The notes under the pieces were generated by a model. That model saw nothing but the letters and a program-made list of their open reading frames with translations, searched no databases and had not been told where the DNA came from. Positions 37,469-53,228 of a stretch of DNA of 64,000 bases are shown here, piece by piece. Position 1 is the stretch's first letter, and each line of letters begins with the position of its first letter. The translations under genes and the position numbers were made by a program. Source of the DNA: Candidatus Omnitrophota bacterium (GTDB lineage: Bacteria; Omnitrophota; Gorgyraeia; Zapsychrales; JANLHA01); NCBI GenBank assembly GCA_963662715.1, contig OY759724.1:1946662-2010661 (forward strand). The letters are read 5' to 3'.

Positions 37469-37834
37469 ACCAATAATGCCAGGCCTCCCAAAGATGCGAA
37501 GAAGGAATTCATCGGAAAGATAGATGAGTATCTATTTAAGGTCTGGTGTATCTATTTGACAGAAATATTCTTTTTGTTATAATTTTCTCTATAAGCTTCT
37601 CGGGCGGAAAACGTTATGTTAATTGGCGCAGGCTTGATGAGGGGCAAACAAGATAAACCCGGAGAAGGACGTTAAAAAAATCACGCCTATTATTAAAATA
37701 TGCATTATCATATTTTCCCTGATGCTCCTCGCGCAAAGTCATTGGTTTTCATGTAAGACAGAATTGATAATTCACGGCTAAATTTAAAACTGTGCCTTCA
37801 TAGCGGTGGGAAGGATAATAAAGGAAAATGATAT

Positions 37835-38731
37835 ATGTCCAACGTCAATAAGTCCCCCATGCCTTCCAACGGAAATTTATTTATGATTTTTTCGGCTTTA
37901 AGGCCCTATCAATGGATTAAAAGTGCCTTTGTTTTTCTGCCGTTGATTTTCGGCGGCAAACTTTTCCATGTCCCCACGTTTATAAAGACAGTCTGGATGG
38001 CTTTAATATTCGCCCTTGCCTCCAGCGCCGTCTATGTCCTGAATGATATTTATGACTTAACCGAAGATCAAAAACATCCGGATAAATGCCGCCGGCCTCT
38101 AGCCGCGGGGGTTATGACCCTGTCCCGGGCCAGGATGATCATTGTTTCTCTCTCGCTTATTACGCTTGTCTTGTCATATACCGTTAACATTCATGCCGCA
38201 TTCATCATTATGGCTTATTTTCTTTTGAATTACCTGTATTCGAAATATTTAAAGCATATCGTCATTATTGATGTTTTTTGTATCGGAGCTTTTTATTATT
38301 TGCGCATCCTGGCCGGGGGGGTTGCCAGCGATGTTTATTTGTCAAACTGGATCATTATGTGTTCGGTTTTGTTGGCTTTATTCATCGGATTTAATAAACG
38401 CAAATATGACGTTGATTTTGAAAAAGACAATCACGCCCAGACAGATTCTTATACCCGTTATTATATTGACAGAATGATATCCGTCATTGCCTCCTCCTTA
38501 ATTATGAGTTATGCCCTTTATGTCATGGACCGGGAAACGATTGCCAAATTTCATACAACGGCCCTGATTTATACGGTGCCTTTTGTTTATTACGGGATTT
38601 TCCGATATATTTATCTGGTTGATATGAAATTACTGGGAGGCGATCCGGTGCGCATTCTCTGGAAAGACGGAGTTTTGAAATTGACCGTTTTGTTGTGGCT
38701 CCTGACGTGCACCGTCATCATATACGTTTGA
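37835..38731 (+). CDS. UbiA-family prenyltransferase, decaprenyl-phosphate 5-phosphoribosyltransferase-like
   Basis: 'LRPYQWIKSAFVFLPLIFGG' N-terminus and 'NDIYDLTEDQKHPDKCRRPLAAG' (NDxxDxxxD) resemble the DPPR-synthase (Rv3806c-type) subfamily. 8-9 TM helices. Confidence 0.65.
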   Translation: MSNVNKSPMPSNGNLFMIFSALRPYQWIKSAFVFLPLIFGGKLFHVPTFIKTVWMALIFALASSAVYVLNDIYDLTEDQKHPDKCRRPLAAGVMTLSRARMIIVSLSLITLVLSYTVNIHAAFIIMAYFLLNYLYSKYLKHIVIIDVFCIGAFYYLRILAGGVASDVYLSNWIIMCSVLLALFIGFNKRKYDVDFEKDNHAQTDSYTRYYIDRMISVIASSLIMSYALYVMDRETIAKFHTTALIYTVPFVYYGIFRYIYLVDMKLLGGDPVRILWKDGVLKLTVLLWLLTCTVIIYV

Positions 38732-38768
38732 ACGTGCAGATGAATTAACAGGGCGTTTTTGAAATTTT

Positions 38769-39512
38769 GTGATGATGTCTCCGGCACATATGAAATTATC
38801 CGTTATCATCCCTTTTTATAATGAAAAGGGGAACATCAGCTTTGTTCTTGATGAAATCAACGAGGTCATGGGGCCCCTGGATATCCCGTATGAAGTCATT
38901 GCCGTGGATGACGGAAGCGAGGATGCCACCCCGGACATCCTCCGGCGCTACTCTCAGGATTGGGAGCAGATGACCGTTGTGACTTTTCCTGAAAATAAGG
39001 GAAAGGATGCGGCCATGTTCGCCGGTTTTCATGCCGCCGGCGGGGATGTGATCGTGACTTTGGACGGGGACGGCCAGAACGACTTTCACGATATCGTTCT
39101 GATGCTTCCCTGGTTAAAGGACTATGACGGGGTTTTCGGCGCCAGAGTCAACCGGCAGGACCCTTTCAGCAAGAAAATCGTTTCCCGGGTGGCGGCTTTT
39201 TTCCGGAAGTTGATTCTCAAGGATGACGTGAAAGATACGGCTTGCGCTTTAAAAGTTTTTAAACGCCACGCGCTCGCGAGCCTCTTTCCGATGAGAGGGG
39301 TTCATCGTTTTATCCCGTTTTTATTCCATCTCTCAGGATTGACTTATAGAATCGTTCCGGTGCATCATCGGCCGAGAAGGGAGGGCCGGTCAAAATTCTC
39401 TCTTAAACGGTTTTATTTCGTTTCGACCATTCTTGATCTTATGTTTATGTGGTGGTTTAAGTTGAACTATATTCGATGTCAGCGTGAGGAAGGCGGTCTT
39501 GGTAGAAAATAA
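38769..39512 (+). CDS. family-2 glycosyltransferase (polyprenyl-phosphate sugar synthase, DPM1/ArnC-like)
   Basis: 'LSVIIPFYNEKGNI...VIAVDDGSEDAT...VTLDGDGQND' GT2 DxD motifs, plus a C-terminal TM anchor. An alternative start is at 38790. Confidence 0.8.
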   Translation: MMMSPAHMKLSVIIPFYNEKGNISFVLDEINEVMGPLDIPYEVIAVDDGSEDATPDILRRYSQDWEQMTVVTFPENKGKDAAMFAGFHAAGGDVIVTLDGDGQNDFHDIVLMLPWLKDYDGVFGARVNRQDPFSKKIVSRVAAFFRKLILKDDVKDTACALKVFKRHALASLFPMRGVHRFIPFLFHLSGLTYRIVPVHHRPRREGRSKFSLKRFYFVSTILDLMFMWWFKLNYIRCQREEGGLGRK

Positions 39513-39525
39513 CTCTCAACCGGGT

Positions 39526-40725
39526 ATGTCAAAAAAGATTTGTCATGGATGGTTTCTTCCCCCTGTCCTCATTTTAACCAGCTTTTTTTTAACAGTCATT
39601 TTTTTGGAAATCCTGGCCCGTCTTTTTTTGCCGGTTCCTCCGAGACTCGTCATCGAGAATTTGAACAAACCCGGCCAGAGCGATTATACGGAATATGGAG
39701 ACTTCCATGTTGACCAGGATGGGCATATTGAGAGTGAACGGCTTCCGGGAGGATTTTTTCTTTACTCGCATACGGGCACGCGGCTTAAAAGAAATGCCAG
39801 GGGAGTGGTGCGTAACCATGCTGTTTCGAATACCGATGTGGACATCTCAACCAATTCTTTGGGATTCCGTCACCGGGAACTTGGCCCGAAGAAAAAAAAT
39901 GAACTGAGGATTTTGGTCCTGGGAGACAGTATCACTTTCGGAGACTTTGTCCCGCAGGATCAGACATATCCTGCTTATCTTGAGCGCCATTTGCGGGCGA
40001 TGTTCCCGGCCAAACATATTGAAGTCATTAACGCCGGGGTCGGGGGGGTTGATCTTCAGAACGAGTTTGCCATTCTCATGGAAAGCGGTCTTTCCGTTGA
40101 GCCGGATATTGTTCTGGTAGGCCTGTACCTGAATGATGCCCATGAGTCCCCTTTCTTGAAAATCAGCCGTTTGCCCTCCTGGCTGGACTGGAGTCATCTC
40201 GCAAGATTTGTCCTGGGCAAGGTGGATAAATTGCGTGCGTTATACCGGGAGCATAAGTGGGAGGAGCAATCTCCCGAGGCTTGGAAGGAGGCCAGGGCAA
40301 GGTTTGCCAGGCAGAACCCTTTACGGGAAGGCGGCGGTAATACAGATGCGTCCCTGAATTGGGAGATTCACCATGCGTTCAGGGACTGGGGCTATGCCTG
40401 GGATGACGGGTACTGGGATAAGGTTCTGGACATTATTGATATGATGGCCGATGTCAGTCAGGACCATCATTTTAAATTGGCTTTCTGTTATTTCCCGGTT
40501 CGTTTTCAGATCACAGCCGCCCATCTGAAGAATGAGCCTCAGCAAAGATTTGAAATGGAAATGCAGCGGCGGCGTTTGCCGCATTTGGATTTGCTGCCTG
40601 TTTTAAGATCCAAATATTCCGGAGATCAGCAGGACCTGTTATATGATCATTGTCATTACCGGCCGGAAGGTAATGCTTTTATCGGGGAAATGTTAGCCCG
40701 TTTTATGGCAGATCATTTGCTGTGA
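39526..40725 (+). CDS. SGNH/GDSL-family hydrolase (esterase/acyltransferase-like), membrane-anchored
   Basis: N-terminal TM, 'LRILVLGDSITFGD' (GDS block I), 'NAGVGG' (block II) and a 'DHCH' block V-like motif. Confidence 0.7.
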   Translation: MSKKICHGWFLPPVLILTSFFLTVIFLEILARLFLPVPPRLVIENLNKPGQSDYTEYGDFHVDQDGHIESERLPGGFFLYSHTGTRLKRNARGVVRNHAVSNTDVDISTNSLGFRHRELGPKKKNELRILVLGDSITFGDFVPQDQTYPAYLERHLRAMFPAKHIEVINAGVGGVDLQNEFAILMESGLSVEPDIVLVGLYLNDAHESPFLKISRLPSWLDWSHLARFVLGKVDKLRALYREHKWEEQSPEAWKEARARFARQNPLREGGGNTDASLNWEIHHAFRDWGYAWDDGYWDKVLDIIDMMADVSQDHHFKLAFCYFPVRFQITAAHLKNEPQQRFEMEMQRRRLPHLDLLPVLRSKYSGDQQDLLYDHCHYRPEGNAFIGEMLARFMADHLL

Positions 40726-40792
40726 ATTTCATCACAGGCCATGAGGGCTTTATCCCGGACGGAAGCTGTCCGGGCAAACCCAGGAGAACAAA

Positions 40793-41512
40793 ATGGAAGG
40801 ACCTTTAACGTTGATCATGCCGGTTTTCAATGAAGCCGAAACCATAGAGAAGGTGATCCGTGATACTTACGGAGAAGTGAGCCGCTGGCAGACGGCGGTG
40901 AACTTCATTATTGCGGAAGACGGCAGTCAGGACGGGACAAAGGAAATATTATATGAACTTCAAAAGGATATCCCTTTCACCTTGGTAAGTTCGCAGGAAC
41001 GTAAAGGCTATACCCGGGCCTTCAAGGATGCCCTGGCTTTGGCCGGGACCCCCTGGGTCCTTTTCAGCGACTCGGACGGGCAGCACGACCCCCGGGACAT
41101 GAAGAAGCTCGTTGATGCCGCGGAAGGGTATGATATCGTCAGCGGATGCAAGACCCCGCGGCATGACCCTCCGCACCGGCTGATGTTATCGTTTTTTTAT
41201 AATTCTTTTATTCATGTGCTGTTTGGCCTGAAAATGAAAGACTGCAATTCCGGTTTTAAGCTCATCCGGAAATCCGTTATCGATCAGGTTCTCCCGCAGC
41301 TTCAGGATATGCGGGATTGTATTATGTCAGAATTTATCTTGAGGGCCTATTTATTAGGTTTTAGAATTAGGGAAATCCCCGTAACGCATTATGCCCGGCC
41401 TTTCGGGCAGACGGCTATTTTTCAACTGAAACAGTTGCCGGGTATCATCTGGGGGCTGCTTAAGGCCTTGGTTCATATTAAACGGGAAGATCAAAGAAGA
41501 AAAGCGATATGA
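40793..41512 (+). CDS. family-2 glycosyltransferase (dolichyl-phosphate-sugar synthase-like)
   Basis: 'LIMPVFNEAETI...IIAEDGSQDGT...FSDSDGQHD' GT2 signature. Confidence 0.8.
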   Translation: MEGPLTLIMPVFNEAETIEKVIRDTYGEVSRWQTAVNFIIAEDGSQDGTKEILYELQKDIPFTLVSSQERKGYTRAFKDALALAGTPWVLFSDSDGQHDPRDMKKLVDAAEGYDIVSGCKTPRHDPPHRLMLSFFYNSFIHVLFGLKMKDCNSGFKLIRKSVIDQVLPQLQDMRDCIMSEFILRAYLLGFRIREIPVTHYARPFGQTAIFQLKQLPGIIWGLLKALVHIKREDQRRKAI

Positions 41513-42834
41513 AGATCCTTATATTAGGCGCGGGGCTCGCCGGTTTAGAGTGCGGGCGGCAGCTCCGTCAGCGGGGGTGTGATTTTGCAATTCTTGAAAA
41601 AGAGTCGCAGATCGGCGGCCTCGCCAGGACCAACAAGACGGGGGATTATGCCTGGGACTTCGGCGTGCATGCTCTTTACAGCCGGCATCCTCATATGACC
41701 CGGTATCTGCACAGCCTGCCGTTGGACTACGTTCCGTCGGAACGGAGAGTTTCCATTTATCATACATCAGGCAGAAACGCGCCCCCGTATTTGATTAACT
41801 ATCCTTTTGAGGAAGGCATCAAGGGCCTGCCCTGGAAGGACCGCTGGGAATGCATCGGCGGATATTTCATTTCGAAATTTCGGCATCAATCCGAATATTG
41901 TCATTTGCAGGATTGGATCGATCACGGGCTGGGCTTCGGGATCGCCAAGCATTTTATGACGCCCTACAACCGGAAAATCTGGAACTGTCCCCTTGAGGAC
42001 ATTTCCATGGATTTGGTCAATGCGAAGATTCATCCCGCTTCACTCAAGAATTTTCTTATGGCCGCTTTCGGCAGGGAGGTTATCGGGCGAATCTATCAAT
42101 GGAAATTTGTTTATCCCCGCAGGGGCATTCAGGCCTTAATGGATTACACGGCGCAAGACATCCGCGATAAGATACGGGTCAAAAAGCAGGTGGAGAAAAT
42201 AAGACGGCAGGGTACGGGCTGGGAGGTTTTAACGACCGACGGGGATATTGAGAAGGCGGATAGGGTGATTTCTACGATCCCTTTGGTGGAATTATTGAAA
42301 ATGGTTGAAATGGAAGGCCTGCACAAGAGTTTTTCTCAGCTGAAATGGAATGACACGTATTTCATTCTTGTCGGATTAAGAAAGGGATGCCGGTTTTCAT
42401 TGCTGAACGACTGCCACTGGGCTTTTTTTAAAGAGCAGGAAATTTTCTACCGGATCACGATGATGCATAATTTCAGTGAGGAGTTTTTGCCCGCCTTGGT
42501 TGCGGAGGTGACAAATAAGGAAGCCGTCCGGCAGATGTCCCCGGAACAAATACAGGCCGGGGTCCTCAAGGACTTGACGCGTTTGAACATTATCAAGAAC
42601 TCCCGGGATGTCGCTGTCACGGACATACGATACGTTCCTTATACGTACCCTATCCCTACGGTCGATCTGGATTCCGTCAAGGATACGATCACCCGGCGAC
42701 TGGAAAGGGAAAATATATTGCTTGTCGGACGAAACGGGCGCTGGGATTACCTGAACATGGACGGGATACTCCGGTCCGTTTCCGAATTTATCCGGGGCTA
42801 TTTTGGTGATGAGCCGGACGGCCCGCCGCTTTAG
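41509..42834 (+). CDS. FAD/NAD(P)-binding oxidoreductase (amine-oxidase / UDP-galactopyranose-mutase-like fold)
   Basis: 'MKILILGAGLAGLECGRQL...ILEKESQIGGLARTNKTGDYAWDFGVHALYS' GxGxxG dinucleotide motif and 'GG.A.T' motif. It overlaps the GT2 stop by 4 nt. Confidence 0.6.
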   Translation: MKILILGAGLAGLECGRQLRQRGCDFAILEKESQIGGLARTNKTGDYAWDFGVHALYSRHPHMTRYLHSLPLDYVPSERRVSIYHTSGRNAPPYLINYPFEEGIKGLPWKDRWECIGGYFISKFRHQSEYCHLQDWIDHGLGFGIAKHFMTPYNRKIWNCPLEDISMDLVNAKIHPASLKNFLMAAFGREVIGRIYQWKFVYPRRGIQALMDYTAQDIRDKIRVKKQVEKIRRQGTGWEVLTTDGDIEKADRVISTIPLVELLKMVEMEGLHKSFSQLKWNDTYFILVGLRKGCRFSLLNDCHWAFFKEQEIFYRITMMHNFSEEFLPALVAEVTNKEAVRQMSPEQIQAGVLKDLTRLNIIKNSRDVAVTDIRYVPYTYPIPTVDLDSVKDTITRRLERENILLVGRNGRWDYLNMDGILRSVSEFIRGYFGDEPDGPPL

Positions 42835-42975
42835 GGCCGGTTTATCTCCAGGGCGCTGGCTTTTATAACAGTCCCCCCAGGAGGGCGGAAGGGGGGGAAC
42901 GGACACGGGCAGCGACTGGCCGTGTGTTTGTGAAATCAATGAATGGATACATTGCTTCTGTAAGATCTCTCCTTT

Positions 42976-44637
42976 ATGAAAATTCAATTAAGAAAAATAT
43001 CCCCTGGGGCTGTCTGTCACAATGAATGTTTCCCCGCTGTTCTGTTTGTGATCTTTTTTGTCTTGAGCTGGCTGTTCATGCAGCACACTTTCAGTTATAA
43101 AGACGATACATTTTTCCTGAGACATAAAGTCTGGAGCGATTTCGGGGCGCATATCCCTCTCATCAGATCTTTTTCCATGGGAGATAATTTCTCCCTCGAA
43201 CACCCCCTGTTCCCGGGAGACCGGATGCGCTATCATTTCCTTTTTTATTCCTGGGTCGGACTTCTTGAGCAATGGGGGCTTAATATCGCTGTGGCTCTTA
43301 ACCTGCTCAGCGCCTTTGGTTTGGCTTTGTTGATGTGGCTCATCTTTCGTCTGAGTGAAAAGATGTTCACCAGCCGTTTAGCCGGGCTGCTCGCGGTCCT
43401 GCTTTTTCTTTTTAACGGATCCCTGTCCTGCCTGTTTTTCTTCCAGAAACATCCCTTGCACTGGAGTTCCTGGCAGGACATTATCACGGCAGACTCTTTT
43501 GCTTCGTTTGGGCCCTGGAACGGGATCGTAAGTATTTTCTGGACCCTGAATATCTACACCAATCAGCGGCATTTGGCTTTAAGTTATGCCGTGATCCTTT
43601 TATGTTTGTGGCCGCTGATGACCCTGGCTTTTGAAGGGAGAAAGATATCCTTAAGGAATAAGATCGCGATCGGCATGGTCGCGGCGCTTGCCCCGTTTCT
43701 TCATCATACGATTATCCCCGTTGTTTTTACATATGTTGTGATGTGGATGATATTTTGTCCCCGGATGGCAAGGGCCATAGGCCCTTATTATCTGTTCATG
43801 TTCCTTTGCGCGGTCCCGGCATTATGGTATATGAACGACGGCTCTTCCGTTGATTTTGTCTATTCCCCGGGGTTTGTTCAGCAGCCCAAAAACTGGGTGG
43901 AGTGGGCGGAATACTGGATGTATAATCTGGGGCTTTATACCGTTCTCATACCCTTTGTCTTTATATGGGCGAAGAAAGGGGGCCGCGTCTGGCTGGCTTC
44001 GTCTTTCATCCTTTTTATTGTCAGCAATATCTGGCGGTTTTCTCCGGACATGTTTAATAATCACAAGCTGATCAATTTCTTTATGATTTCTGTGCAGATT
44101 GTCGTTGCCGGATTTCTTGCGCAATGGCTGCGGAAACCCGGTCTTTTCCGGGCAGGAGCCGTGGCGTTTTTGCTGACTTTGACTTTTTCCGGAGTGATTG
44201 ATTTTTTCCCGATCCTGAATGACGGCCGGGGGGCCCTGCGGGACTTCCGCAGATCGCCCGCAGCTGTCTGGATTCAGGAGAATACGTCTCCGCAGTCCGT
44301 GTATTTATGTACGAACGGGATGAACTCTCCCCCTTCGTTCCTGGGGCGCCGGATTTATATGGGGTACGTTTATTTTCCCTGGTCCGCCGGCTTTCCCGCC
44401 TATGAAAGACTCCGGGCGATTGAACCCGTTTTTCATGAGGATACGGACCAGGAATCGGTTTGCCGGCTGCTTCAGCAGGAGCATATCGATTATATTGTCG
44501 TCGAACCCGGCACCGATGCCTGGCCGGAGATCGATATCCATGACAGTCTGTTATTAAAGACATGGACGCCAATCTTCAAAACAGATGATCGCTACAAGAT
44601 TTATTCTGTCAAGGAGGAATGTGCTGAGACACGTTAA
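42976..44637 (+). CDS. polytopic membrane protein (about 12 TM), putative GT-C-fold glycosyltransferase
   Basis: 553 aa and highly hydrophobic, with large loops. It lies in the glycosylation gene neighbourhood. I recognise no family. Confidence 0.4.
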   Translation: MKIQLRKISPGAVCHNECFPAVLFVIFFVLSWLFMQHTFSYKDDTFFLRHKVWSDFGAHIPLIRSFSMGDNFSLEHPLFPGDRMRYHFLFYSWVGLLEQWGLNIAVALNLLSAFGLALLMWLIFRLSEKMFTSRLAGLLAVLLFLFNGSLSCLFFFQKHPLHWSSWQDIITADSFASFGPWNGIVSIFWTLNIYTNQRHLALSYAVILLCLWPLMTLAFEGRKISLRNKIAIGMVAALAPFLHHTIIPVVFTYVVMWMIFCPRMARAIGPYYLFMFLCAVPALWYMNDGSSVDFVYSPGFVQQPKNWVEWAEYWMYNLGLYTVLIPFVFIWAKKGGRVWLASSFILFIVSNIWRFSPDMFNNHKLINFFMISVQIVVAGFLAQWLRKPGLFRAGAVAFLLTLTFSGVIDFFPILNDGRGALRDFRRSPAAVWIQENTSPQSVYLCTNGMNSPPSFLGRRIYMGYVYFPWSAGFPAYERLRAIEPVFHEDTDQESVCRLLQQEHIDYIVVEPGTDAWPEIDIHDSLLLKTWTPIFKTDDRYKIYSVKEECAETR

Positions 44638-44641
44638 TTTT

Positions 44642-46357
44642 ATGACAAGGAAACCATTTATAACAAGTCTTTGTCTGGCCGCTATTCTTCTTGCGGCGGC
44701 TGGCTTTCGTTTTGTCGGGATCAACTGGGATTACGGATATCAGCAGCATCCCGATGAACGCATGCTGATGCTCGTTGCGAGCCGGATCCGGTTTTTTGAC
44801 AAGCTTGACCCGGATTTTTTTAATTACGGAAGTTTTCCGGTTTATTGTGTGCGCGCCGTCGCTCAATTAAGCGATGCTTTGTTTCACACCCGGTGGGCCA
44901 ATTATGACGGCATGCTCTTTGTCGGCCGGGTTTTGGTTTCCCTTCTTGACATCCTGATGGTTTATTGTGTCTATCGGCTGGCCGACAAGCTTTTCCGTGT
45001 CCCGAGGCTGTCCCTTTGCGCCGCGGCGTTTTATGCTTTAAGTTTTTTCCCTATCCAGAACAGCAATTTTTATATCGTTGATAACTTTGTAAACTTTTTC
45101 CTGACATTATTATGCGGCCTTCTTCTGCTGTATTTAAAAAAGGCCTCTTTAAGCAAGGTTGCCGGCCTGGCGGCCCTGTTCGCCGTTTTATTAGCAACAA
45201 AAGTGACTCCGGTGATTTATTTACCGGTCATTCTTTTAATGCTGTTTTTTCAGGTCCGGGGTTTTCGGTGGCATCTTTTGCGTCCGTGGTACAGGCCGTT
45301 TCAGTACCAAGTGTTGTTTGTGTTGCTTTGTCTGGCCTGCCATTTTGTCCTCATGCCGTATGCCTATATCCGGTTTGATAAGTTCTGGAGTGATATCACC
45401 TTGCAGATGCAGATGAGCCGGGACCCTTATGTGTTCCCTTACACGCTGCAATACGTGGGGACAAAGCCTTACAGCTACTATTTTATCAATATGTTCTTCT
45501 GGGGGCTGGGCCCGATGCTGTCTTCGTTTTTCCTCCTGGGGCTTTTGTCGGTTTTTCTTCCGGGTGCGCAGCAGGCGAAAAGACAGGGACGAGTGTTTGT
45601 CTTCGTCCTGGTCTATGTTTTATGGAATTTTTATTATTTTGCCGTTTTGGGCCGGTCGGCGGTCAAGTTCATGCGCTATATGCTGCCTTTATATCCTTTC
45701 GCAGCCGTGATGGCGGCGGCGGGATTTGAATGGACCTTAAGCTTATTTAAAAGAAAAAAAATGCAGGGGCTTTATTTTGTTGCCGCCTTCGGGTTCATTT
45801 TCCTATGGACCGTCTGCTTTGTTGATATTTATTCGCGTCCTCTCACCAGGATTGAAGCCTCCAAGTGGATTAACCGGCACATCCCGGCCGGAGCTGTTTT
45901 AGCGGTGGAACACTGGGACGAACGTCTGCCGTTGTTCGGTGTTGACCGGTATGTTTTCGTAGAACTGCCGCTGTACGAATATCCGGACCAGGAGAGAAAG
46001 TGGGCGGGGATGAAAGATAAACTCCGGCAAGCCGATTATATTATTATCGCCTCACAAAAATTGTTTGTCCCTTTGCAGAAGCTGGGAAATTGTCAGGAGG
46101 TCGCAAGGTGCTATCCGAGAAGCGGGGATTATTACAGAAAGCTCTTTGCCGGGCAGCTGGGTTTTGAGAAAGTCGCTGAGTTTACCTCTTATCCGGGATT
46201 AACGGTTTTGGGCCGGCGGTTTGACTTTCCTGATGATCAGGCCGATGAATCCTTTTCCGTTTATGATCATCCGAGGGTTTATATTTTTCAAAAGAGGGGC
46301 TTTTCCCAATCCGAACGGCAGTATCCTTTTCCCGCGGAGTCACCGGGGCGGCAGTGA
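44642..46357 (+). CDS. ArnT/PMT-like GT-C glycosyltransferase (GT39/GT83-like)
   Basis: 'WDYGYQQHPDERMLMLVA' acidic first-loop motif and the ArnT-like topology. The start is given per the ORF-track frame (MTRKPF...). My own nucleotide count around 44639-44644 disagrees by 1 nt, so treat the start as +/-1. Confidence 0.55.
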   Translation: MTRKPFITSLCLAAILLAAAGFRFVGINWDYGYQQHPDERMLMLVASRIRFFDKLDPDFFNYGSFPVYCVRAVAQLSDALFHTRWANYDGMLFVGRVLVSLLDILMVYCVYRLADKLFRVPRLSLCAAAFYALSFFPIQNSNFYIVDNFVNFFLTLLCGLLLLYLKKASLSKVAGLAALFAVLLATKVTPVIYLPVILLMLFFQVRGFRWHLLRPWYRPFQYQVLFVLLCLACHFVLMPYAYIRFDKFWSDITLQMQMSRDPYVFPYTLQYVGTKPYSYYFINMFFWGLGPMLSSFFLLGLLSVFLPGAQQAKRQGRVFVFVLVYVLWNFYYFAVLGRSAVKFMRYMLPLYPFAAVMAAAGFEWTLSLFKRKKMQGLYFVAAFGFIFLWTVCFVDIYSRPLTRIEASKWINRHIPAGAVLAVEHWDERLPLFGVDRYVFVELPLYEYPDQERKWAGMKDKLRQADYIIIASQKLFVPLQKLGNCQEVARCYPRSGDYYRKLFAGQLGFEKVAEFTSYPGLTVLGRRFDFPDDQADESFSVYDHPRVYIFQKRGFSQSERQYPFPAESPGRQ

Positions 46358-46558
46358 CCCTGCTTGGGCGTGGGGGAGGAGAGACGAGCCGGAGAAGGAC
46401 GCGTACTTTTAAAATAATGATTCTGTGCGTGGGCCAGGATCAAAATATGATATAATTCCCTAAAATTAAGGAAGAATGCCGGATTCCTAAAATTTATAAA
46501 TATTTAAAGGCCGTTTCCTTGTCCCGGGTCCTCTGAGGCCGCATGTGATTTCCTGTCC

Positions 46559-48265
46559 ATGGATACAAAAAATAATATGATATGTCCTCAAAACCGGTTT
46601 TCCCTGAACAGAAATTTTCTCCTTTTTATCGGTTTTTTTATCTTGATTATTATTGAGTTCTGTGCCTACCAGTGGCAAGGCAAGCTGTCCTTCATCGCTT
46701 CAAGGCTTTGGCTGCTGCATGGGAGCTTTTATGTCCTCTGCAGTCTCGGTGTTATAGTCAAAACCTTGAAAAAAGATTTTCAGGAAAGAAATTTCCGCGG
46801 GCTGTTAATTTTTTTCCTCTTTGGTTTGGTCCTTTTTCATACGGTGGGTTCCCGGGGAATAACCATAAATCACGAAAGCACGCAACAGGTGGCGGACGGC
46901 TGTGGTTTCTTTAAGCAGCCGGATTTCAGCTACACCAAAATAGGTTTTCTGGGATATCCGGCCCGTCAATATCTGCTCCTGGCCCTTCCGTCCCTGATGT
47001 TCGGCCGGAGTCTCATAACTCTCCGGTTGCCTTATGCCGCAGCCTTTTTTCTTGGGGTGATGCTGTTTTATTGCGGACTTAACCGGTATTTTGACGAAAG
47101 GAAAACAGGCCGGACCCTGCTGGCCCCGTTTGTCACCCTGTCATTGCTGTGTTTCCCCGTCCTTGTCAGTATCCTGATTTCCTTTGAACAGGCTGTCCTG
47201 CCTTTATCCTTTACTTTGCAGGCGACGGGGTGGTTTTTATTGTGTCTGAAAACGATAACCCGTCTGCGGGCTGTTTGTCTGGCGTTCATCGGCGCCTTGT
47301 TGGCGACGGCGTACACCCCCGGGCTCGCTTCATGGGGCCTGCTTATTGTCCTGCTGGGCGTTCAAATATGGCGTGAGGGCCGATTGAAGGATTTTAACTC
47401 AACGGTCCTTTGGATAAATGTCCTGTTATTCGCTGGTCTTGTCGGAGCATTTTCGTTCTTTACGCGTATCGATCTGTTTTCCCGGGAGAGCGGATTATGG
47501 ATTCCCCATTATTTGATAGGCCCCTATTTGTTGGATGTCTTCAAGGCTCTTTTTATCCCTTTCGAACAGGCCTTTCTTCCTGTTCCCGTCGTTATTTATT
47601 TCATGTTATCCTTAATGTCTGTATTCCGTCGCCGGGATTTTGCCGTATCTCTCTGGGCGATGCTGACAATTTTTCTGGCCACGCAGCTGGGAGGATTTGC
47701 CAAACCGGCACCCCCTTACAGCCTGCACAGGGCCCTGGTGATCATTCCGCCGCTTTTGACCTCTATGGCCTTGACCATAGAGTCCTGGGTGGCGGATAAA
47801 GGTGTCAGAGTGTTGAAAAGGGTCGTTTTTTTCGCCCTGTGCCTGGGGGTTTTGTTTGCCGGCAAGAATTTGTACGAAAGTTTAAAACTTTGCCGCAGCG
47901 GTCCCCGGGATGTCGTGATATTTAATGTCCTGGATGCGGTCGAGGAGTTCGGGGTTGATAAGTCCGGTAAAATGAGGATTCTTGTCGCTCCCGGCAATTT
48001 AAATTATAGCAACCTTTATGACTGCTTCAGATATTTTCTGCCGAAGTCCGAATTCTTATGGCACCCGACCACCGTTGGTAAGCTTGAGAATATGGATGCC
48101 CCTGCTTTTGTTTATCTTGATAGACCGGAGTGGCGTGCAGGAATTATGGACATGATGAAGGGAGGGCAGGGCCATTATGCCATCATTAGATTTCATTATG
48201 ATAATAAAGAGATACAATTTCTCAGAATTATTTGCGTCTCGGAGAAAAACAAAGACAGAAAATGA
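46559..48265 (+). CDS. polytopic membrane protein (568 aa), putative GT-C-like transferase
   Basis: More than 10 TM helices and a C-terminal soluble domain. It lies in the glycosylation neighbourhood. Confidence 0.4.
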   Translation: MDTKNNMICPQNRFSLNRNFLLFIGFFILIIIEFCAYQWQGKLSFIASRLWLLHGSFYVLCSLGVIVKTLKKDFQERNFRGLLIFFLFGLVLFHTVGSRGITINHESTQQVADGCGFFKQPDFSYTKIGFLGYPARQYLLLALPSLMFGRSLITLRLPYAAAFFLGVMLFYCGLNRYFDERKTGRTLLAPFVTLSLLCFPVLVSILISFEQAVLPLSFTLQATGWFLLCLKTITRLRAVCLAFIGALLATAYTPGLASWGLLIVLLGVQIWREGRLKDFNSTVLWINVLLFAGLVGAFSFFTRIDLFSRESGLWIPHYLIGPYLLDVFKALFIPFEQAFLPVPVVIYFMLSLMSVFRRRDFAVSLWAMLTIFLATQLGGFAKPAPPYSLHRALVIIPPLLTSMALTIESWVADKGVRVLKRVVFFALCLGVLFAGKNLYESLKLCRSGPRDVVIFNVLDAVEEFGVDKSGKMRILVAPGNLNYSNLYDCFRYFLPKSEFLWHPTTVGKLENMDAPAFVYLDRPEWRAGIMDMMKGGQGHYAIIRFHYDNKEIQFLRIICVSEKNKDRK

Positions 48266-48295
48266 TTCCGCTGCCATGAATTTCCTGGGGGTTCT

Positions 48296-49894
48296 ATGAC
48301 CCGGCTATTTATCAGTTTCCCAATGTTCCGCGGTGTTTTTCTGGGTGTGCTTCTGTCTCTGTTGTGCATCCTGAAGAAGGAATGCTTTGTCCGTATTCAG
48401 CTAATAAGAAAGATTCTTCTTGCGGCCCTTGCTTATTTAGCCATCCCTTCTCTGTTGTTTTGTTTTTCTTTGCCTCTCCCGCTTCCTCATCGCAGCGCGC
48501 TTTGTCTTCTGGTCATGTACTGCTTCTTTTCTTCCGTCCGGAAAATTAAGAACCACAGAACTTTCCCGCCGTGTGATTACGAATATAAAATAAGGCTCGA
48601 TTTTTTCCTCATGGGTATTTTGTTATTGGCGTTGAATCAAGGGGCTATCTTTTTTGACCTCAGTGTGGTGGGGGACTGGCATAAACATCGCAGTGTTTTG
48701 ATGAGCCTGTACGAGAATCCCTGGGACCCCTTGTTATGTACAGGCTTTGATTGCTCCGCCCAGGTCGCTCCGGGCATGCATCTGGTTTATTATTACGCCA
48801 TGTATCTTCCCGGCGTGTACGTTTGCAAATTGTTGGGAGGAATGGTTTCGTCTTTGGCCGGGCCGTCCCTTTGGAGTATCCTGTCGGTGTCTTTCCTGAT
48901 CTGGAATCTTTTGGGGATGATGATTGTTTTTCTCCTGTTGCCTGTCGTGTGTCAGGTCCTGTTTAAAACAAAAGACAGGGTGTCCTGGGGGATTTTTTAT
49001 CCTGTCTTAATATTTTTCGCGGGCATGGATTATTGGTTCATCTGGATTCACAAGAAAACCTGGCTGATCGGTCATGCCGAATGGGGGGCGACGGCCTATA
49101 ATGCGCAGATGAGTTCTTTTATCAGTATGTGGTCATGGGTCCCTCATCAGCTTGTTGTCGGGTTCTTAGGGATATCCCTGCTGATCTTGTTCAGCCGGAA
49201 TTTTTCTTTGTTCCCTTTCTGTTTGTGGACTGTTTTCCTGCTGTCCGGGGCCAGTCTGGCCTGGATCGGCAGCATTCCGATATTGGTTTATTTTCTTGTC
49301 GTCCGGTTCCTGGACATCCGTCAGGAATTGTCCTGGGGCTGTCTGCGGAATATTTTTGCCGCGAACCTGATAAACATCCTGGCCGGACTTTTTATAACGA
49401 TGACCATTTTTCTGTTTTACAGCACGAAGGTGGAGGCCGAGGGATTTGATATCTTATTAAAGAGGACAACGGTGGGGGATTTCCTGCTGTTTCATTTTAT
49501 CGAATTTTATCCGACGTTTATGCTGGTTGTCGCGTATCGTCTGTTGCGCCGGACTGTCCCGCCCATTCTAGGGTTTTTATTCGGATGGATTGTCTTTATT
49601 GCCATGTTTCACGGCGGCAACTGGAATGATCTGGTGATGCGGGGAAGCCTGCCGGCGTTGTCTGTTATTATGATTTTCTGTGCTTATGCCGTTCAGGCCG
49701 TGATTCAGAAAAAACGGACCGCATCCCTTATTTTAGTGCTGCTTGTGCTCCTGCTGACCTTCCCTTTATTTTTAAATGAATATTTTGTCGCTTTGGAGGG
49801 GATGCATCCTCAGCTGGAGGAAGGCTACGCTGTTTATATGCAGTATGCCGGAGACGGCCGTGTCCGGGGGGTTTGGAAACTGTTTAACCTGTAA
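48296..49894 (+). CDS. polytopic membrane protein (532 aa), hypothetical (possible polymerase/ligase or GT-C)
   Basis: 12 or more TM helices and no recognisable motif. Confidence 0.4.
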   Translation: MTRLFISFPMFRGVFLGVLLSLLCILKKECFVRIQLIRKILLAALAYLAIPSLLFCFSLPLPLPHRSALCLLVMYCFFSSVRKIKNHRTFPPCDYEYKIRLDFFLMGILLLALNQGAIFFDLSVVGDWHKHRSVLMSLYENPWDPLLCTGFDCSAQVAPGMHLVYYYAMYLPGVYVCKLLGGMVSSLAGPSLWSILSVSFLIWNLLGMMIVFLLLPVVCQVLFKTKDRVSWGIFYPVLIFFAGMDYWFIWIHKKTWLIGHAEWGATAYNAQMSSFISMWSWVPHQLVVGFLGISLLILFSRNFSLFPFCLWTVFLLSGASLAWIGSIPILVYFLVVRFLDIRQELSWGCLRNIFAANLINILAGLFITMTIFLFYSTKVEAEGFDILLKRTTVGDFLLFHFIEFYPTFMLVVAYRLLRRTVPPILGFLFGWIVFIAMFHGGNWNDLVMRGSLPALSVIMIFCAYAVQAVIQKKRTASLILVLLVLLLTFPLFLNEYFVALEGMHPQLEEGYAVYMQYAGDGRVRGVWKLFNL

Positions 49895-49960
49895 TGTGCT
49901 CCCCTTGCGGTGCAGAACCCTGAGATTGAAATCTGATGAGCGGGAGGTTGAAATCAACGC

Positions 49961-50998
49961 TCACATGAATTTTTTCACCAGCCCCAAAAGCCCTTGCTTC
50001 CAGGCCGCTGTGTGGGTGATCCCTGCTTTACGGCTTTTGATGTCCTGATAATTCTCCAAATACCAGGCATAGGTCTTGATAAGAATCTGTGCGTTGGAAT
50101 AGCGCGGGGACCATTTCAGGGTGTTTTTAAGTTTGTCAATGGAGACATAGGAATCTTTATCCGCGGTATCGTAAACCCATTGATAAAGAGGAGAGAGCCG
50201 GATAGCTTCCAGGAAACGCAAGAAACCTTTAATTGTGTTCGCTGAAGTGGGGAAGAGGGTGGAGCCCGATTCCGCAAAATGGAATAAGGCTTCCAGGTCA
50301 TCCTGGACCGTGCTGAATTTTTCTGCCGCGACATTAAAGACGTCGTTGAACGCTGCGTCCTGTTTCTGAACAAAAAGCGCGATGACGTCAACCAGATCAT
50401 CGACCGCCAAAAGCTGGTAGGAGTTCTGTCCGTCTCCGATAACCGGAATCTTCTTGCCGTCATGCACCCAGTCAAAAAGGATTTCAAAGACGCCCAGCCG
50501 GCCGGTGCCTAAAAATGTCTTTGGCCGTAAAATCGTTACGTTAAGGCCTTTTTTTATATATCCAAGACACAGTTCTTCTGCGGCGATTTTGGATTCGCCG
50601 TAAGGCCCGACGCCCATTAACCGGTCGCTTTCTAGAATGGGATGTTTTTCCGGAATGCCGTAGACAGCCGTCGAAGAGATATAAATCACTCTCTGAACAT
50701 GGTGGGTATGCGCGGCATCCAGGATGTATTTTGTCCCGCTGACATTGGTGGAAAAAATATCCGCTTTTTTCCAGAGGGGGAGCGCCGCAGCGGCATGAAT
50801 AACGATATCCATCCCTCTGACAAGCTCCGGGATGTTTTCTTCCTGCCGGATATCCCTGCGGATAAAACGGCAGGATTTTTTTAAAGGATTGTCGACCGAA
50901 GCGATATCCACCAGCGTGAGTTTATGATTTTGTTTAAGCAGGGAATGCGCACAGTGTGTGCCCAGGAAACCGGCTGCGCCTGTAATGAGAATATTCAT
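49961..50998 (-). CDS. NAD-dependent epimerase/dehydratase (SDR, extended family)
   Basis: 'MNILITGAAGFLG' Rossmann motif and 'YGESK' catalytic YxxxK. It is the only minus-strand gene in the locus. Confidence 0.8.
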   Translation of the reverse strand: MNILITGAAGFLGTHCAHSLLKQNHKLTLVDIASVDNPLKKSCRFIRRDIRQEENIPELVRGMDIVIHAAAALPLWKKADIFSTNVSGTKYILDAAHTHHVQRVIYISSTAVYGIPEKHPILESDRLMGVGPYGESKIAAEELCLGYIKKGLNVTILRPKTFLGTGRLGVFEILFDWVHDGKKIPVIGDGQNSYQLLAVDDLVDVIALFVQKQDAAFNDVFNVAAEKFSTVQDDLEALFHFAESGSTLFPTSANTIKGFLRFLEAIRLSPLYQWVYDTADKDSYVSIDKLKNTLKWSPRYSNAQILIKTYAWYLENYQDIKSRKAGITHTAAWKQGLLGLVKKFM

Positions 50999-51128
50999 GG
51001 AGGCCCCTTCTTTAAAAATGAGAGAAAAAAGATATTTTTGTTCCGTTCAGGAAATTAGTGTTTTATTATATCACAGAGGAAAAGTCTTCCCAAAAGCCAA
51101 ACGAGGTAATTTGTCGGTTAAAAAATAA

Positions 51129-53228
51129 ATGAATCCTATCCTGATAAATTTAGGTCTTATCGTTTTTGCCTGGTTCATGACGCTCATTCTTCAGCTGTTC
51201 GCTGTCCCGGTGATCGTCGTGAAGCTCCGGAACGTGTTGTTCGACGCCGGATGGGCTTTCGGCCGGCTGGTGTCCTGGTTAAGCCTTGGCCTGCCGATAT
51301 GGTTTTTAGCCCATTTCCAATGCCCTGTGAATAATCAGCCCGGGCTGTTTATCGTTTTTTTCCTTTGGGCGGCTTTGAGCTGGAGAACTTTTCATAAGAA
51401 TAAGGATGAAATAGTGCTTTATCTGCAGGAAAAGTGGCCCTGGCTCCTTGCAGAAGAAGTTGTTTTCGCGTTTGGCTTTTTCTTTTTCAGCCTCATGCGG
51501 GGTTTTGCTCCTGATATCCTTGATTTAGAGAAGTTCATGGACATGGGCCTGATGGCCTCTTATCTCCGCGCTGACACTTTCCCGGTTTTGGATATGTGGT
51601 TTGCCGGAGAAACCATGAACTATTATACATTCGGGCATTTTTTGGGTTCCATCATGACGAGGTTCTGGTCGGTGCCTTTACATTACAGCTATAATTTATT
51701 ATTGGGCCTTGTGTTCGGCCTGACAATGGTCCACAGCTTTGGTTTTGTTTTGAACCTTTTACAGAGAAGCGGGGATGAAACAGCCCCGCCCCTGGGCCCG
51801 CTGGTCTGGGGAGGGGCTGTCGGGGCTTTTTTGATTGTTTTTGCCGGGAACAGCCATGCGATTTGGTACGGGATCAAAAACCACGGCTGGCAGGGATATT
51901 GGTATCCGGACGCGACGCGATTTATTCCCTACACGATTCATGAATTCCCGGCGTATTCATTTATTGTCAGTGACCTGCATGCCCATGTCTGGAATTTCCC
52001 CCTGGTGATCGCCTTATTGACAGCGATTTTTTTGTGGTACCGCGCGGTATTGATTTCCGAACAGCCGAGACGGATTTATCTTCGGGCTTTTTTTGTGAGT
52101 TTGATGTTCAGCATCTGTTTTATGACCAGCGCCTGGGACGGGGGTATCTATGCGCTACTTTTAGGTGTTTGCGGAGTGAGCCTGCTGATGTTTTATCCGA
52201 AACGTTTCCGGCATATTGCCGCTTCTCTGGGGCTCATGGGGTGTCTGTCGGCCTTGATTTCTTCAGCCTGGTGGTTGCATTTCCGTCCTATTTCCGAAGG
52301 GGTCGGGATAGTGGAAACCAGTACTCATTTCTGGCAAATGTTGATTGTCTGGGGCGGGTTAGGCCTCGGGAGTTTTTTGGCTTTCAGCATCGCTGACCAT
52401 CAAAACAGACATTTGATTTATATGGCCCATGTCGTTAAAAGAAGAAAGCAGGCTGTCTTAGGTCTTGTGATGGCGCTTATTGCGGCGGCCTGGATTCTCA
52501 TATTGCTCCCGGAACTTATTTATGTCAAAGACATTTATCCGAATCATCCCCGGGCCAACACGATGTTTAAATTTACTCTGCAGAGCTATATCTTTATGTG
52601 CCTCTCAACAGGCTGGGCTTCGGGTTTTATTTGGCTGAAAGAGTTTCTGCCGCATAATAAATACCGCTTATGGATCAGGGGTTTTTTGTCATTCGTTCTT
52701 ATTGTTGTTGTTTCTTCGCTTTTAATTTATCCGTATTTCGGCTATCGGGACAGATACGGTCAGTTGAAAAATTTTAAAGGACTCGACGGATTAACCTGGC
52801 TTAAAGAAAAATATCCTGATGATTATGCGGCTGTCTTATGGCTGAATCAAAATGTCTCCGGACAGGCTGTTATATTAGAGGCGGTGGGCACCAGCTATTC
52901 TGAATTCAGCCGGATATCGGCTTTTACCGGCCTTCCGACGGTCGTTGGCTGGCCGGTCCATGAATGGTTGTGGCGGGGTTCATACGATATCCCGGGTTCA
53001 CGCATCGAAGAAGTCAGGAGGATGTACGAGAACCCGGTCTCTTATAATTCGGCCATGTCTTTTGAAAAGTACCTGGTGGATTATATATTTGTGGGAGCCA
53101 AGGAGCGGGAGGCCTATCCTGAGCTTAAAGAAAGGCAGCTCCGGGCGTTAGGAAAGGTGATTTTTGAACAGGGAGACACGTTGGTCGTTAAACGTAATAT
53201 AAGCCCTGCGATGTATCCGATTTATTAA
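51129..53228 (+). CDS. large polytopic membrane protein (699 aa), DUF2298/GT-C-like
   Basis: About 14 TM helices with a C-terminal soluble domain. The pattern resembles predicted GT-C families. Confidence 0.4.
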   Translation: MNPILINLGLIVFAWFMTLILQLFAVPVIVVKLRNVLFDAGWAFGRLVSWLSLGLPIWFLAHFQCPVNNQPGLFIVFFLWAALSWRTFHKNKDEIVLYLQEKWPWLLAEEVVFAFGFFFFSLMRGFAPDILDLEKFMDMGLMASYLRADTFPVLDMWFAGETMNYYTFGHFLGSIMTRFWSVPLHYSYNLLLGLVFGLTMVHSFGFVLNLLQRSGDETAPPLGPLVWGGAVGAFLIVFAGNSHAIWYGIKNHGWQGYWYPDATRFIPYTIHEFPAYSFIVSDLHAHVWNFPLVIALLTAIFLWYRAVLISEQPRRIYLRAFFVSLMFSICFMTSAWDGGIYALLLGVCGVSLLMFYPKRFRHIAASLGLMGCLSALISSAWWLHFRPISEGVGIVETSTHFWQMLIVWGGLGLGSFLAFSIADHQNRHLIYMAHVVKRRKQAVLGLVMALIAAAWILILLPELIYVKDIYPNHPRANTMFKFTLQSYIFMCLSTGWASGFIWLKEFLPHNKYRLWIRGFLSFVLIVVVSSLLIYPYFGYRDRYGQLKNFKGLDGLTWLKEKYPDDYAAVLWLNQNVSGQAVILEAVGTSYSEFSRISAFTGLPTVVGWPVHEWLWRGSYDIPGSRIEEVRRMYENPVSYNSAMSFEKYLVDYIFVGAKEREAYPELKERQLRALGKVIFEQGDTLVVKRNISPAMYPIY

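Follow-up and report, generated by a model that had tools for sequence, protein, structure and literature searches.

In Citrobacter youngae, a UbiA-type polyprenyl-phosphate phosphoribosyltransferase (PPPRS) makes undecaprenyl-phospho-ribofuranose from phosphoribosyl pyrophosphate (PRPP), a small transporter flips the lipid-linked sugar, and once it is in the periplasm the sugar is attached by a glycosyltransferase of the GT-C class (Kelly et al. 2024, PMC11127046). The parts of the O1 and O2 systems are ORF15 (PPPRS-PRP), ORF14 (flippase), ORF12 (GT-C/GT136) and ORF13 (an epimerase of the short-chain dehydrogenase/reductase, SDR, family), and in O2 the cytoplasmic, GalE-like ORF13 turns the side chain from ribofuranose into xylofuranose (PMC11127046). 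That a PPPRS works together with a GT-C, to which an SDR epimerase (for xylofuranose) or DprE1/DprE2 (for arabinofuranose) may be added, was shown both genetically and biochemically; homologues of DprE1 and DprE2 mark the arabinofuranose systems, and "more elaborate" loci with several epimerases and GT-Cs are mentioned as well (PMC11127046). Such systems are known for the O antigens of Citrobacter and Stenotrophomonas and for others, and the same paper cites the O-arabinofuranosylation of the group IV pilin of Pseudomonas aeruginosa by the GT-C TfpW with homologues of Rv3806c, DprE1 and DprE2 (PMC11127046). Here we analyzed a locus in a 64,000-nucleotide stretch from a Candidatus Omnitrophota bacterium (contig OY759724.1 of assembly GCA_963662715.1; the whole stretch is called the window below), in which a UbiA-family protein is encoded with two family 2 glycosyltransferases (GT2a and GT2b), an SGNH/GDSL-type protein, a flavoprotein, an extended SDR and five large membrane proteins (M1 to M5). 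With a probability of roughly 60%, we read this locus as a composite extracytoplasmic glycosylation system that uses polyprenyl-phosphate-carried sugars.

Comparison with described systems

Like the three-component systems of Kelly et al., the locus combines a PPPRS with one or more GT-Cs and a GalE-like SDR that has the GxxGxxG and YxxxK motifs. Unlike in those systems, the UbiA protein carries no fused HAD phosphatase and is closer to the Rv3806c type, and neither a small flippase nor a phosphatase of the types that we tested is encoded in the window. The four or five large membrane proteins appear to belong to families other than that of the GT-C studied there, two GtrB-type GT2s and a mutase resembling UDP-galactopyranose mutase (UGM) are encoded in the same operon, and the host is an uncultured Omnitrophota bacterium.

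With the mycobacterial decaprenyl-phospho-arabinose (DPA) pathway (Rv3806c, Rv3807c, DprE1/DprE2 and Emb/Aft), the locus shares a homologous first enzyme whose active-site residues are kept, the presence of GT-Cs, and a predicted structure of M1 that superposes on AftA. Unlike in that pathway, the window encodes no homologue of DprE1, DprE2 or PAP2, one extended SDR takes the place that DprE1/DprE2 have in other loci, and Emb-type enzymes of ~1000 aa are missing. The pilin system of P. aeruginosa is similar in its Gram-negative-type cell, its PPPRS and its GT-C, and a pilin-like protein with a Thr/Pro tail, which might be glycosylated, is encoded near the locus studied here; the two differ in the type of epimerase. 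As in the GtrA/GtrB/GtrC systems and the streptococcal PgfS/PgfM system, enzymes with a DxDxQ motif that resemble GtrB, ArnC and PgfS (here GT2a and GT2b) are paired with GT-Cs, but unlike GtrB and ArnC they have no C-terminal transmembrane (TM) helices, and no GtrA-type flippase is encoded in the window.

The initial annotation had pointed to a system of this kind outside the Actinobacteria. As a claim of novelty, this is outdated in the light of the systems in P. aeruginosa, Citrobacter and Stenotrophomonas (PMC11127046), and since the locus follows the logic of Kelly et al., it is not the first occurrence outside the Actinobacteria. We found no description of pentofuranose systems of this kind in Omnitrophota in the searchable literature. 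New here are the phylum, the architecture with several donors and several GT-Cs, the pairing of a mutase with a GT2, and a syntenic pilin-like candidate acceptor with a (PT)n tail.

The UbiA-family protein is a predicted phosphoribosyltransferase

We compared the UbiA protein with family models and with the structure of its mycobacterial relative. It matched PF01040 at 4e-24 and scored 241.3 bits against the NCBIfam model NF008977 (decaprenyl-phosphate phosphoribosyltransferase, DPPRS), which passes the cut-off of 234, whereas the models for haem O, UbiA, MenA-like, chlorophyll and GGGP synthase enzymes gave at most 53 bits. The protein, of 298 aa, contains no extra (phosphatase) domain, and it did not reach the cut-off of the HAD-fused model NF006088. 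Its residues 16-292 align with the Rv3806c structure 8j8j at an E-value of 3e-36.

The roles of the Rv3806c residues as ligands of PRPP, Mg and the lipid phosphate are known from the structure paper (PMC10994848). Thirteen of the 15 functional residues that we checked are identical in the UbiA protein (R22, K28, Y70, N73, D74, D77, D81, K87, R90, Y138, K143, Y157 and K191 in Rv3806c numbering); Q135 corresponds to N132, and K208 aligns to a gap. The NDxxDxxxD motif for Mg and ribose (N70-D71-I-Y-D74-L-T-E-D78) lies in cytoplasmic loop 1 and is invariant among 28 relatives. The pyrophosphate cluster of Lys and Arg residues is made up of R23, K84, R87 and K140 (R22, K87, R90 and K143 in Rv3806c), the ligands of the 5'-phosphate and ribose are K29, Y67, N70, N132 and Y154 (K28, Y70, N73, Q135 and Y157), and the lipid-phosphate lysine K191 is matched by K188. 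These results strongly support the prediction, made from sequence comparison, that the UbiA protein is a PRPP-dependent polyprenyl-phosphate 5-phosphoribosyltransferase, and the assignment to the type of the DPPR synthases in the initial annotation is borne out by the NF008977 score, the low scores of the other UbiA subfamilies and the conserved Rv3806c ligands. A quinone, haem or chlorophyll prenyltransferase was considered as well and is ruled out by the same scores (241 versus at most 53 bits); placed against these enzymes by subfamily models, the protein sides with DPPRS.

A GalE-like SDR is a conserved partner of the UbiA enzyme

The SDR belongs to the Epimerase family and has GAAGFLG at residue 7 (GxxGxxG) and YGESK at residue 133 (YxxxK). 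No TM helix and no signal peptide were predicted, which indicates a cytoplasmic enzyme of the extended type. Using a UbiA profile, we fetched 80 UbiA loci from species-representative genomes and scored the neighbouring genes, taking at least 200 bits as the threshold for a close SDR homologue. The results showed that such a homologue is present in 32 of the 80 loci, in 16 of them directly downstream of UbiA. Homologues of DprE1/DprE2 were found in five loci, where they occupy the position of the SDR; the two kinds of partner never occurred together (0/80), and 43 loci had neither. At least one large polytopic protein was encoded near UbiA in 59 of the 80 loci, often directly adjacent. The labels of the related loci include Planctomycetia, Melainabacteria, Clostridium and Deferribacteraceae. 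Thus, the 345-aa GalE-like SDR is a conserved partner of the UbiA enzyme, and a single GalE-like SDR is a far commoner partner in this clade than DprE1/DprE2.

The same pairing was found on plasmids. The best plasmid matches to the SDR are on haloarchaeal megaplasmids, where the SDR gene lies beside a DPPRS gene and a GT-C gene, and the SDR is 43.6% identical to the DPPRS-adjoining SDR of Halostagnicola. Among the matches of the following group is that in Rhizobium sp. CCGE531, which is listed by Kelly et al. 2024 as a candidate pentofuranose system (PMC11127046); its epimerase is 33% identical and is encoded with an SMR transporter opposite a HAD-UbiA gene. A hit on a Prevotella plasmid, met when ORF13 of C. 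youngae was sought, had no SDR nearby.

The initial annotation had read the FAD protein and the SDR together as following the logic of DprE1/DprE2. This did not hold: phmmer searches with the DprE1/DprE2 homologues of Chondrinema and Rhizobium as queries found neither protein in the 64-kb window, the FAD protein is homologous to UGM, the SDR is of the extended type (345 aa) and not a classical SDR of ~250 aa like DprE2, and it is the SDR alone that pairs with UbiA. By analogy with ORF13 of C. youngae O2, the best guess for the product of the SDR is xylofuranose, and arabinofuranose is possible.

On the Halostagnicola larsenii plasmid (L176, 4868-10437), the DPPRS gene is followed by a gene for a PHP-domain protein and then by one for a protein with an LPG_synthase_TM domain, and this cluster is divergent from the SDR gene and a gene annotated as "DolP-mannose mannosyltransferase". 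The arrangement suggests that in the haloarchaeal branch the PHP protein is the phosphatase and the MprF-like TM domain the flippase. Homologues of the former were found in 7 of 88 UbiA loci and of the latter in 4 of 88.

Four of the five large membrane proteins are supported as GT-Cs

M1, M3 and M4 had no Pfam match up to an E-value of 10, and sequence searches of the PDB with M2, a profile of the M1 family and a profile of the M3 family (50 sequences) gave no match. M1 has 1316 homologues, some of the 120 listed carry PF10060, and the family is common in Patescibacteria. An AlphaFold (AF2) model of M1 was built from a 40-sequence alignment (pLDDT 89.8, pTM 0.91) and compared with the PDB by Foldseek. 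All matches at E<1e-3 were GT-Cs, namely DPY19 (3e-9), STT3 (6e-7), AftA (8e-5, TM-score 0.53), AglB and PglB. The residues S54-D55-F56, at the start of the first external loop, are invariant. The model supports M1 as a GT-C by fold, for which transferase activity would be expected.

M2 reached 25.7 bits against PMT_2 (E 1.5e-5; cut-off 26.1), its orthologue in the related locus L093 matches PF13231 firmly, and D57 of loop 1 is invariant across ten PMT_2-like proteins, which together support M2 as a putative PMT_2/ArnT-like GT-C. Its true start is likely M20 at 44642. M3 has 367 homologues. Its family profile aligned in hhalign with the PMT_2-like profile at 95.3% (E 2.3e-8, 145 columns, M3 residues 124-277) and showed no relation to M1, and M3 is probably a distant GT-C. 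M5 scored 271 bits against DUF2298 and 412.7 bits against TIGR03662 (cut-off 300.25), and is presumed to be a GT-C through the M1-family members that match PF10060. An hhalign comparison of the M1 profile with M5 was weak yet colinear (E 0.012, probability 3.5%) and is not used as evidence. For M4, five homologues were found among 5.8 billion protein clusters; the model built from five sequences had a pLDDT of 46 and no meaningful Foldseek match, and hhalign against the PMT_2-like profile gave 6.9%. GT-C status is therefore supported for M1, M2, M3 and M5: the initial count of five GT-C-like proteins stands for M1 (fold), M2 (PMT_2), M3 (hhalign) and M5 (DUF2298/YYY), and M4 is left unmatched.

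M3 and M4 form a conserved two-gene cassette, which also occurs beside PMT_2 genes in L090 (119-3390) and L091 (4963-8234); in the other genome, no UbiA gene was found in the flanks of the cassette that could be seen. The pair is missing from the close relatives L092 and L093, and the slot between M2 and the SDR is empty in L092, holds a gene for a 495-aa membrane protein in L093 and is filled by M3 and M4 here. Several large polytopic proteins arrayed around UbiA are common in this lineage. In the metagenome-assembled Omnitrophota genome L049 (1151-19756), UbiA lies among at least eight large polytopic proteins (8-11 TM helices) and two GT2s, a putative GT-C array larger than that of the window.

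The GT2 enzymes, the SGNH protein and the mutase-like flavoprotein

The best PDB matches of GT2a were ArnC (3e-26), GtrB (9e-22) and DPMS (7e-14), and its best NCBIfam matches were ArnC and PgfS, both below cut-off; the best PDB match of GT2b was ArnC (2e-14). The DxDxQ motif, which has been proposed as a hallmark of polyprenyl-phosphate glycosyltransferases (PMC10821137), is present as DGDGQ at residue 99 of GT2a and as DSDGQ at residue 93 of GT2b. By this motif and their closest solved relatives, both proteins fall in the GtrB/ArnC/DPMS/WpsA group. We found no hydrophobic segment in either; in this they are like the soluble WpsA/DPM1 subtype, whose function depends on a partner in the membrane.

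The SGNH protein scored 31.6 bits against Lipase_GDSL_2, just under the cut-off of 32.9, and has GDS at residue 147, DHCH at residue 388 (the DxxH block) and a single N-terminal TM helix (27-45). Its true start may be M15 at 39526. GDSL-like genes adjoin UbiA also in the distant loci L003, L018 and L036.

In Pfam, the flavoprotein matched Amino_oxidase and NAD_binding_8, and its best PDB matches, which span residues 3-414, were UGMs from Aspergillus and Trypanosoma (E 6e-28 to 8e-22). Six residues of the Aspergillus enzyme (AfUGM), H63, W315, R327, Y419, R447 and Y453, have conserved counterparts; the aligned residues include the His of the flavin loop, the catalytic Arg, and Arg and Tyr residues that bind the diphosphate. 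Further positions are changed, N207 to Q and Y317 and Y334 to F. The flavoprotein is, by sequence, a homologue of the eukaryote-type UGMs with putative mutase activity. Its reading as an analogue of DprE1 was considered and is ruled out by the near-full-length homology to UGM and the absence of a DprE1 match in phmmer. The start of its gene overlaps the stop of GT2b by 4 bp. In the 80-locus census, UbiA has a mutase-like gene as companion in no more than four cases, the three nearest relatives and a Melainabacteria locus (L016), where the neighbouring GT2s have no DxDxQ.

The generality of the mutase arrangement was analyzed in 80 metagenome loci with UGM-like relatives (L095-L174). These relatives (~30% identity) usually stand in an operon of an SSF symporter, the UGM-like protein, a GT4 (325 aa) and a GT2 (~232 aa), as in L104 (1836-6535), and a GT2 gene lies within 6 kb of the UGM-like gene in 45 of the 80 loci. 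The UGM-like family accompanies glycosyltransferases in general, and the coupling of a mutase to a lipid-phosphate GT2, which is speculative, is peculiar to clusters of the window type. The symporter operon itself looks like a small glycoside or glycolipid pathway, apparently uncharacterised.

Candidate acceptors

In the pilin-like protein, encoded 1.1 kb downstream of M5, the N-terminal KKAQQIIEY leads into a hydrophobic stretch; the protein also has four or five repeats rich in Cys, of the CxxCxPCCGDGxC type, and a C-terminal (PT)n tail of ~80 residues (S/T/P 28/30). It had no Pfam or NCBIfam match. A homologue with the same architecture and position is present in L092 (17738-19042). Tails rich in Thr and Pro are classic substrates of PMT-type GT-Cs. 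From its synteny, it is plausible that the pilin-like protein would be a glycosylation acceptor, as the initial annotation had proposed.

Alternatively, the acceptor could be a polysaccharide or lipopolysaccharide. An AlgE-like (Alginate_exp) porin is encoded upstream at 32843-34228, and together with a BcsQ-like ATPase that has a CBM48 module it points to a polysaccharide acceptor. The ATPase gene (35196-36347, + strand) lies between the genes for the porin and a DUF4870-like protein, and encodes an ATPase of the ParA/MinD/BcsQ type fused to a C-terminal AMPK1_CBM/CBM48 glycogen-binding module. The block of porin, ATPase-CBM48 and DUF4870-like genes is syntenic 5' of the glycosylation operon in relatives.

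Organization of the locus

All 11 ORFs of the initial annotation were confirmed in coordinates and strand (Table 1), and family searches and motifs bear out its inventory, with the five large proteins as polytopic proteins of 532-699 aa. From UbiA to M2, the genes are tightly spaced or overlap, and there is a single strong promoter-like site 5' of UbiA; this suggests that at least the first seven genes may be co-transcribed as one transcript. The site agrees with the consensus at 12 of 12 positions and lies ~250 bp 5' of the UbiA start, within the 366-bp gap after the preceding ORF (end 37468); it is predicted from the consensus match alone. The same gene order was found in at least five related genomes with ~65-75% protein identity, so the cluster is a real grouping and not a chance juxtaposition. 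The UbiA protein is the sole member of its sequence cluster, and relatives that share 43-72% identity with it carry the annotation Candidatus Omnitrophota.

Table 1. Features of the locus, with positions in the window
Feature	Position	Strand	Size and basis
Promoter-like site (predicted)	37556..37583	+	perfect sigma-70 consensus TTGACA-16-TATAAT with TG extension
UbiA, predicted polyprenyl-phosphate 5-phosphoribosyltransferase (PPPRS/DPPRS type)	37835..38731	+	298 aa; NF008977, Rv3806c alignment
GT2a, soluble polyprenyl-phosphate glycosyltransferase-like (GtrB/ArnC/PgfS-like)	38769..39512	+	247 aa; PF00535 4e-28
SGNH/GDSL-type esterase or acyltransferase, membrane-anchored	39484..40725	+	413 aa; GDS and DxxH blocks
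GT2b, second soluble polyprenyl-phosphate glycosyltransferase-like GT2	40793..41512	+	239 aa; PF00535 4e-23
FAD-dependent UDP-galactopyranose-mutase-like enzyme (PRK07208-like family)	41509..42834	+	441 aa; UGM PDB matches
M1, GT-C-fold putative glycosyltransferase, DUF2298-related family	42976..44637	+	553 aa; AF2 model and Foldseek
M2, PMT_2/ArnT-like putative GT-C	44585..46357	+	590 aa; PMT_2 near threshold
M3, probable distant GT-C with C-terminal extramembrane domain	46559..48265	+	568 aa; hhalign
M4, polytopic membrane protein, family not recognised; no large soluble domain	48296..49894	+	532 aa
Extended SDR (GalE-like), cytoplasmic; candidate polyprenyl-phospho-ribofuranose epimerase	49961..50998	-	345 aa; PF01370 2e-42
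Promoter-like site near the SDR gene (predicted)	51093-51065	-	
M5, DUF2298/Chlor_Arch_YYY membrane protein, presumed GT-C	51129..53228	+	699 aa; PF10060 2.7e-80
Pilin-like protein with (PT)n tail, tentative candidate acceptor	54381..55694	+	437 aa

Proposed pathway and alternative explanations

In the pathway that we propose, the UbiA enzyme would convert PRPP and polyprenyl phosphate into polyprenyl-phospho-ribose 5-phosphate, which is the strongly supported step. A phosphatase encoded elsewhere would remove the 5-phosphate, and the SDR, with bound NAD, would epimerise the lipid-linked ribofuranose, as the gene pairing and the precedent of C. youngae O2 ORF13 suggest. GT2a and GT2b would make two more polyprenyl-phosphate sugars from nucleotide sugars, and for one of these the UGM-like mutase, which is translationally coupled, may supply a hexofuranose. 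The lipid-linked donors would be flipped by some transporter, the GT-Cs (assigned by fold or family for M1, M2, M3 and M5) would transfer the sugars outside the cytoplasmic membrane, and the membrane-anchored SGNH protein may add or remove acyl groups. Extracytoplasmic glycosylation fed by polyprenyl-phosphate sugars, as anticipated in the initial annotation, fits the presence of UbiA among GT-Cs together with Dpm1/GtrB-like GT2s.

Several observations weigh against this composite system. Using proteins of related loci as phmmer queries, we found no phosphatase of the HAD-PRP, PAP2 or PHP type in the 64-kb window, and no small flippase of the GtrA (query from Rhizobium), SMR/EamA (Marivivens and CCGE531) or LPG_synthase_TM type (Halostagnicola and L005). 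A hydropathy search for ORFs of 70-260 aa with at least three TM helices found none in the locus, the upstream ORF o107 falling under the threshold. Two of the proposed steps therefore rest on unseen genes. M4 has neither a family nor a fold assignment, both acceptor candidates are speculative, and which pentose the SDR yields is a guess. In the flavoprotein, the pyrophosphate-binding R182 of AfUGM is replaced by K, and the Pfam GLF domain was not matched. A GT2 with DxDxQ lies within 6 kb of the UGM-like gene in just 3 of the 80 metagenome loci; since the UGM-like relatives stand mostly in the operon without DxDxQ, their coupling to a lipid-phosphate GT2 is not general. The SDR gene is convergent to the main operon. 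The relatives with the entire cluster are without exception close (~70% identity), so that the synteny is weak evidence of functional linkage.

An upstream ORF (36340-36663, + strand) encodes a protein of 107 aa that has three hydrophobic segments and matches DUF4870 weakly. It is kept 5' of UbiA in close relatives, and a weak homologue is encoded near UbiA in the Anaerolineae locus L083. This DUF4870/MamF-like protein is at most a conceivable candidate for an unconventional flippase.

The locus might instead be a mosaic, which we consider a possible, though doubtful, explanation. The PPPRS, SDR and GT-C would then form a module for one glycan, and the GtrB-type modules and a mutase supplying galactofuranose would serve other polymers, such as the O antigen of the lipopolysaccharide or an exopolysaccharide exported through the AlgE-like porin, all within a variable cell-surface island. 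The variable slot between M2 and the SDR and the independent travel of the M3-M4 pair in L090 are in line with this, as are the distant relatives that hold only UbiA and a GT-C, with or without an SDR or GDSL gene. In addition, UGM-like relatives elsewhere accompany a Leloir-type GT4 and a GT2, and the Alginate_exp porin and the BcsQ-like ATPase with CBM48 are encoded upstream. The tight spacing and overlaps from UbiA to M2 behind one promoter-like site, on the other hand, suggest co-transcription. A mosaic and a composite system differ mainly in the number of end products, and the chemistry is alike. The composite system could also be taken further, which we regard as unlikely: the mutase would provide an NDP-hexofuranose from which the translationally coupled DxDxQ GT2 makes a polyprenyl-phosphate hexofuranose as well, the GT-Cs would build O-glycans rich in furanoses on the Pro/Thr tail of the pilin-like protein, and proteins of a kind not yet recognised, such as M4 or the DUF4870-like protein, would take care of flipping and dephosphorylation. 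We found no description of a lipid-linked hexofuranose donor for GT-C enzymes in the searchable literature.

A non-orthologous copy of the mycobacterial DPA pathway, in which the FAD protein oxidises C2' and the SDR reduces the product to give polyprenyl-phospho-arabinofuranose for Emb/Aft-like GT-Cs, appears very improbable. Although a DPPRS-type enzyme, a flavoprotein, an SDR and GT-Cs stand together in one block and the M1 model resembles AftA (TM-score 0.53), the flavoprotein has the UGM/amine-oxidase fold and does not belong to the vanillyl-alcohol-oxidase/DprE1 family, and phmmer gave no DprE1 match. Its gene is translationally coupled to GT2b and to neither UbiA nor the SDR. Apart from the nearest relatives, L016 is the one locus in which it occurs with UbiA, whereas the SDR alone is a companion of UbiA in 32 of 80 loci. 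Moreover, where arabinofuranose-type chemistry is expected, true DprE1/DprE2 pairs are present and the SDR is excluded. We give the least credence to the idea that the UbiA product is an end-product glycolipid or a phosphoribosyl-lipid precursor and that the membrane proteins use donors derived from the GT2s only. The lack of a recognisable phosphatase or flippase for the pentose branch in the window and the 43 of 80 related loci without SDR and DprE1/DprE2 would agree with it, but every characterised member of the enzyme class feeds GT-Cs (PMC11127046, PMC10994848), and a large polytopic protein is encoded close to UbiA in 59 of the 80.

Implications for Omnitrophota

Omnitrophota are ultra-small, often epibiotic or predatory bacteria, and we know of no account of their surface chemistry. 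With the composite system as the preferred reading, this phylum would be added to the range of glycosylation by lipid-linked pentofuranose made from PRPP, the wide spread of which has been recognised only recently. Should xylofuranose or another epimer be the product of the SDR family, the sugar would be predictable from the genome sequence alone. The locus also ties two membrane-protein families without known function, DUF2298/YYY and the M1 family that abounds in Patescibacteria, to the GT-C fold and to lipid-phosphate donors, and the pilin-like candidate acceptor with its (PT)n tail makes protein O-furanosylation directly testable. Should the hexofuranose extension be true, Omnitrophota would possess a furanosylated surface filament. 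None of these findings overturns current understanding.

Neighbouring genes

Upstream of the locus, a tRNA gene (32496-32569, + strand; Rfam 57.7 bits) lies just 5' of the porin gene and is the sole match in the window at the Rfam gathering threshold. The ORF at 36728-37468 (+ strand) encodes a 246-aa protein whose N-terminal half is rich in Lys, Arg and Ser and whose C-terminal part weakly resembles EF-Tu domain 2; in relatives, conservation is confined to this latter part. Downstream, a strong terminator-like hairpin (55909-55933) separates the pilin-like gene from a gene at 55976-57832 (+ strand), which encodes a protein of 618 aa in which some seven TM helices at the N-terminus are fused to a spermidine-synthase-like domain (PRK03612-like, below cut-off). 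In L092 and L093, too, this gene lies in synteny behind the locus.

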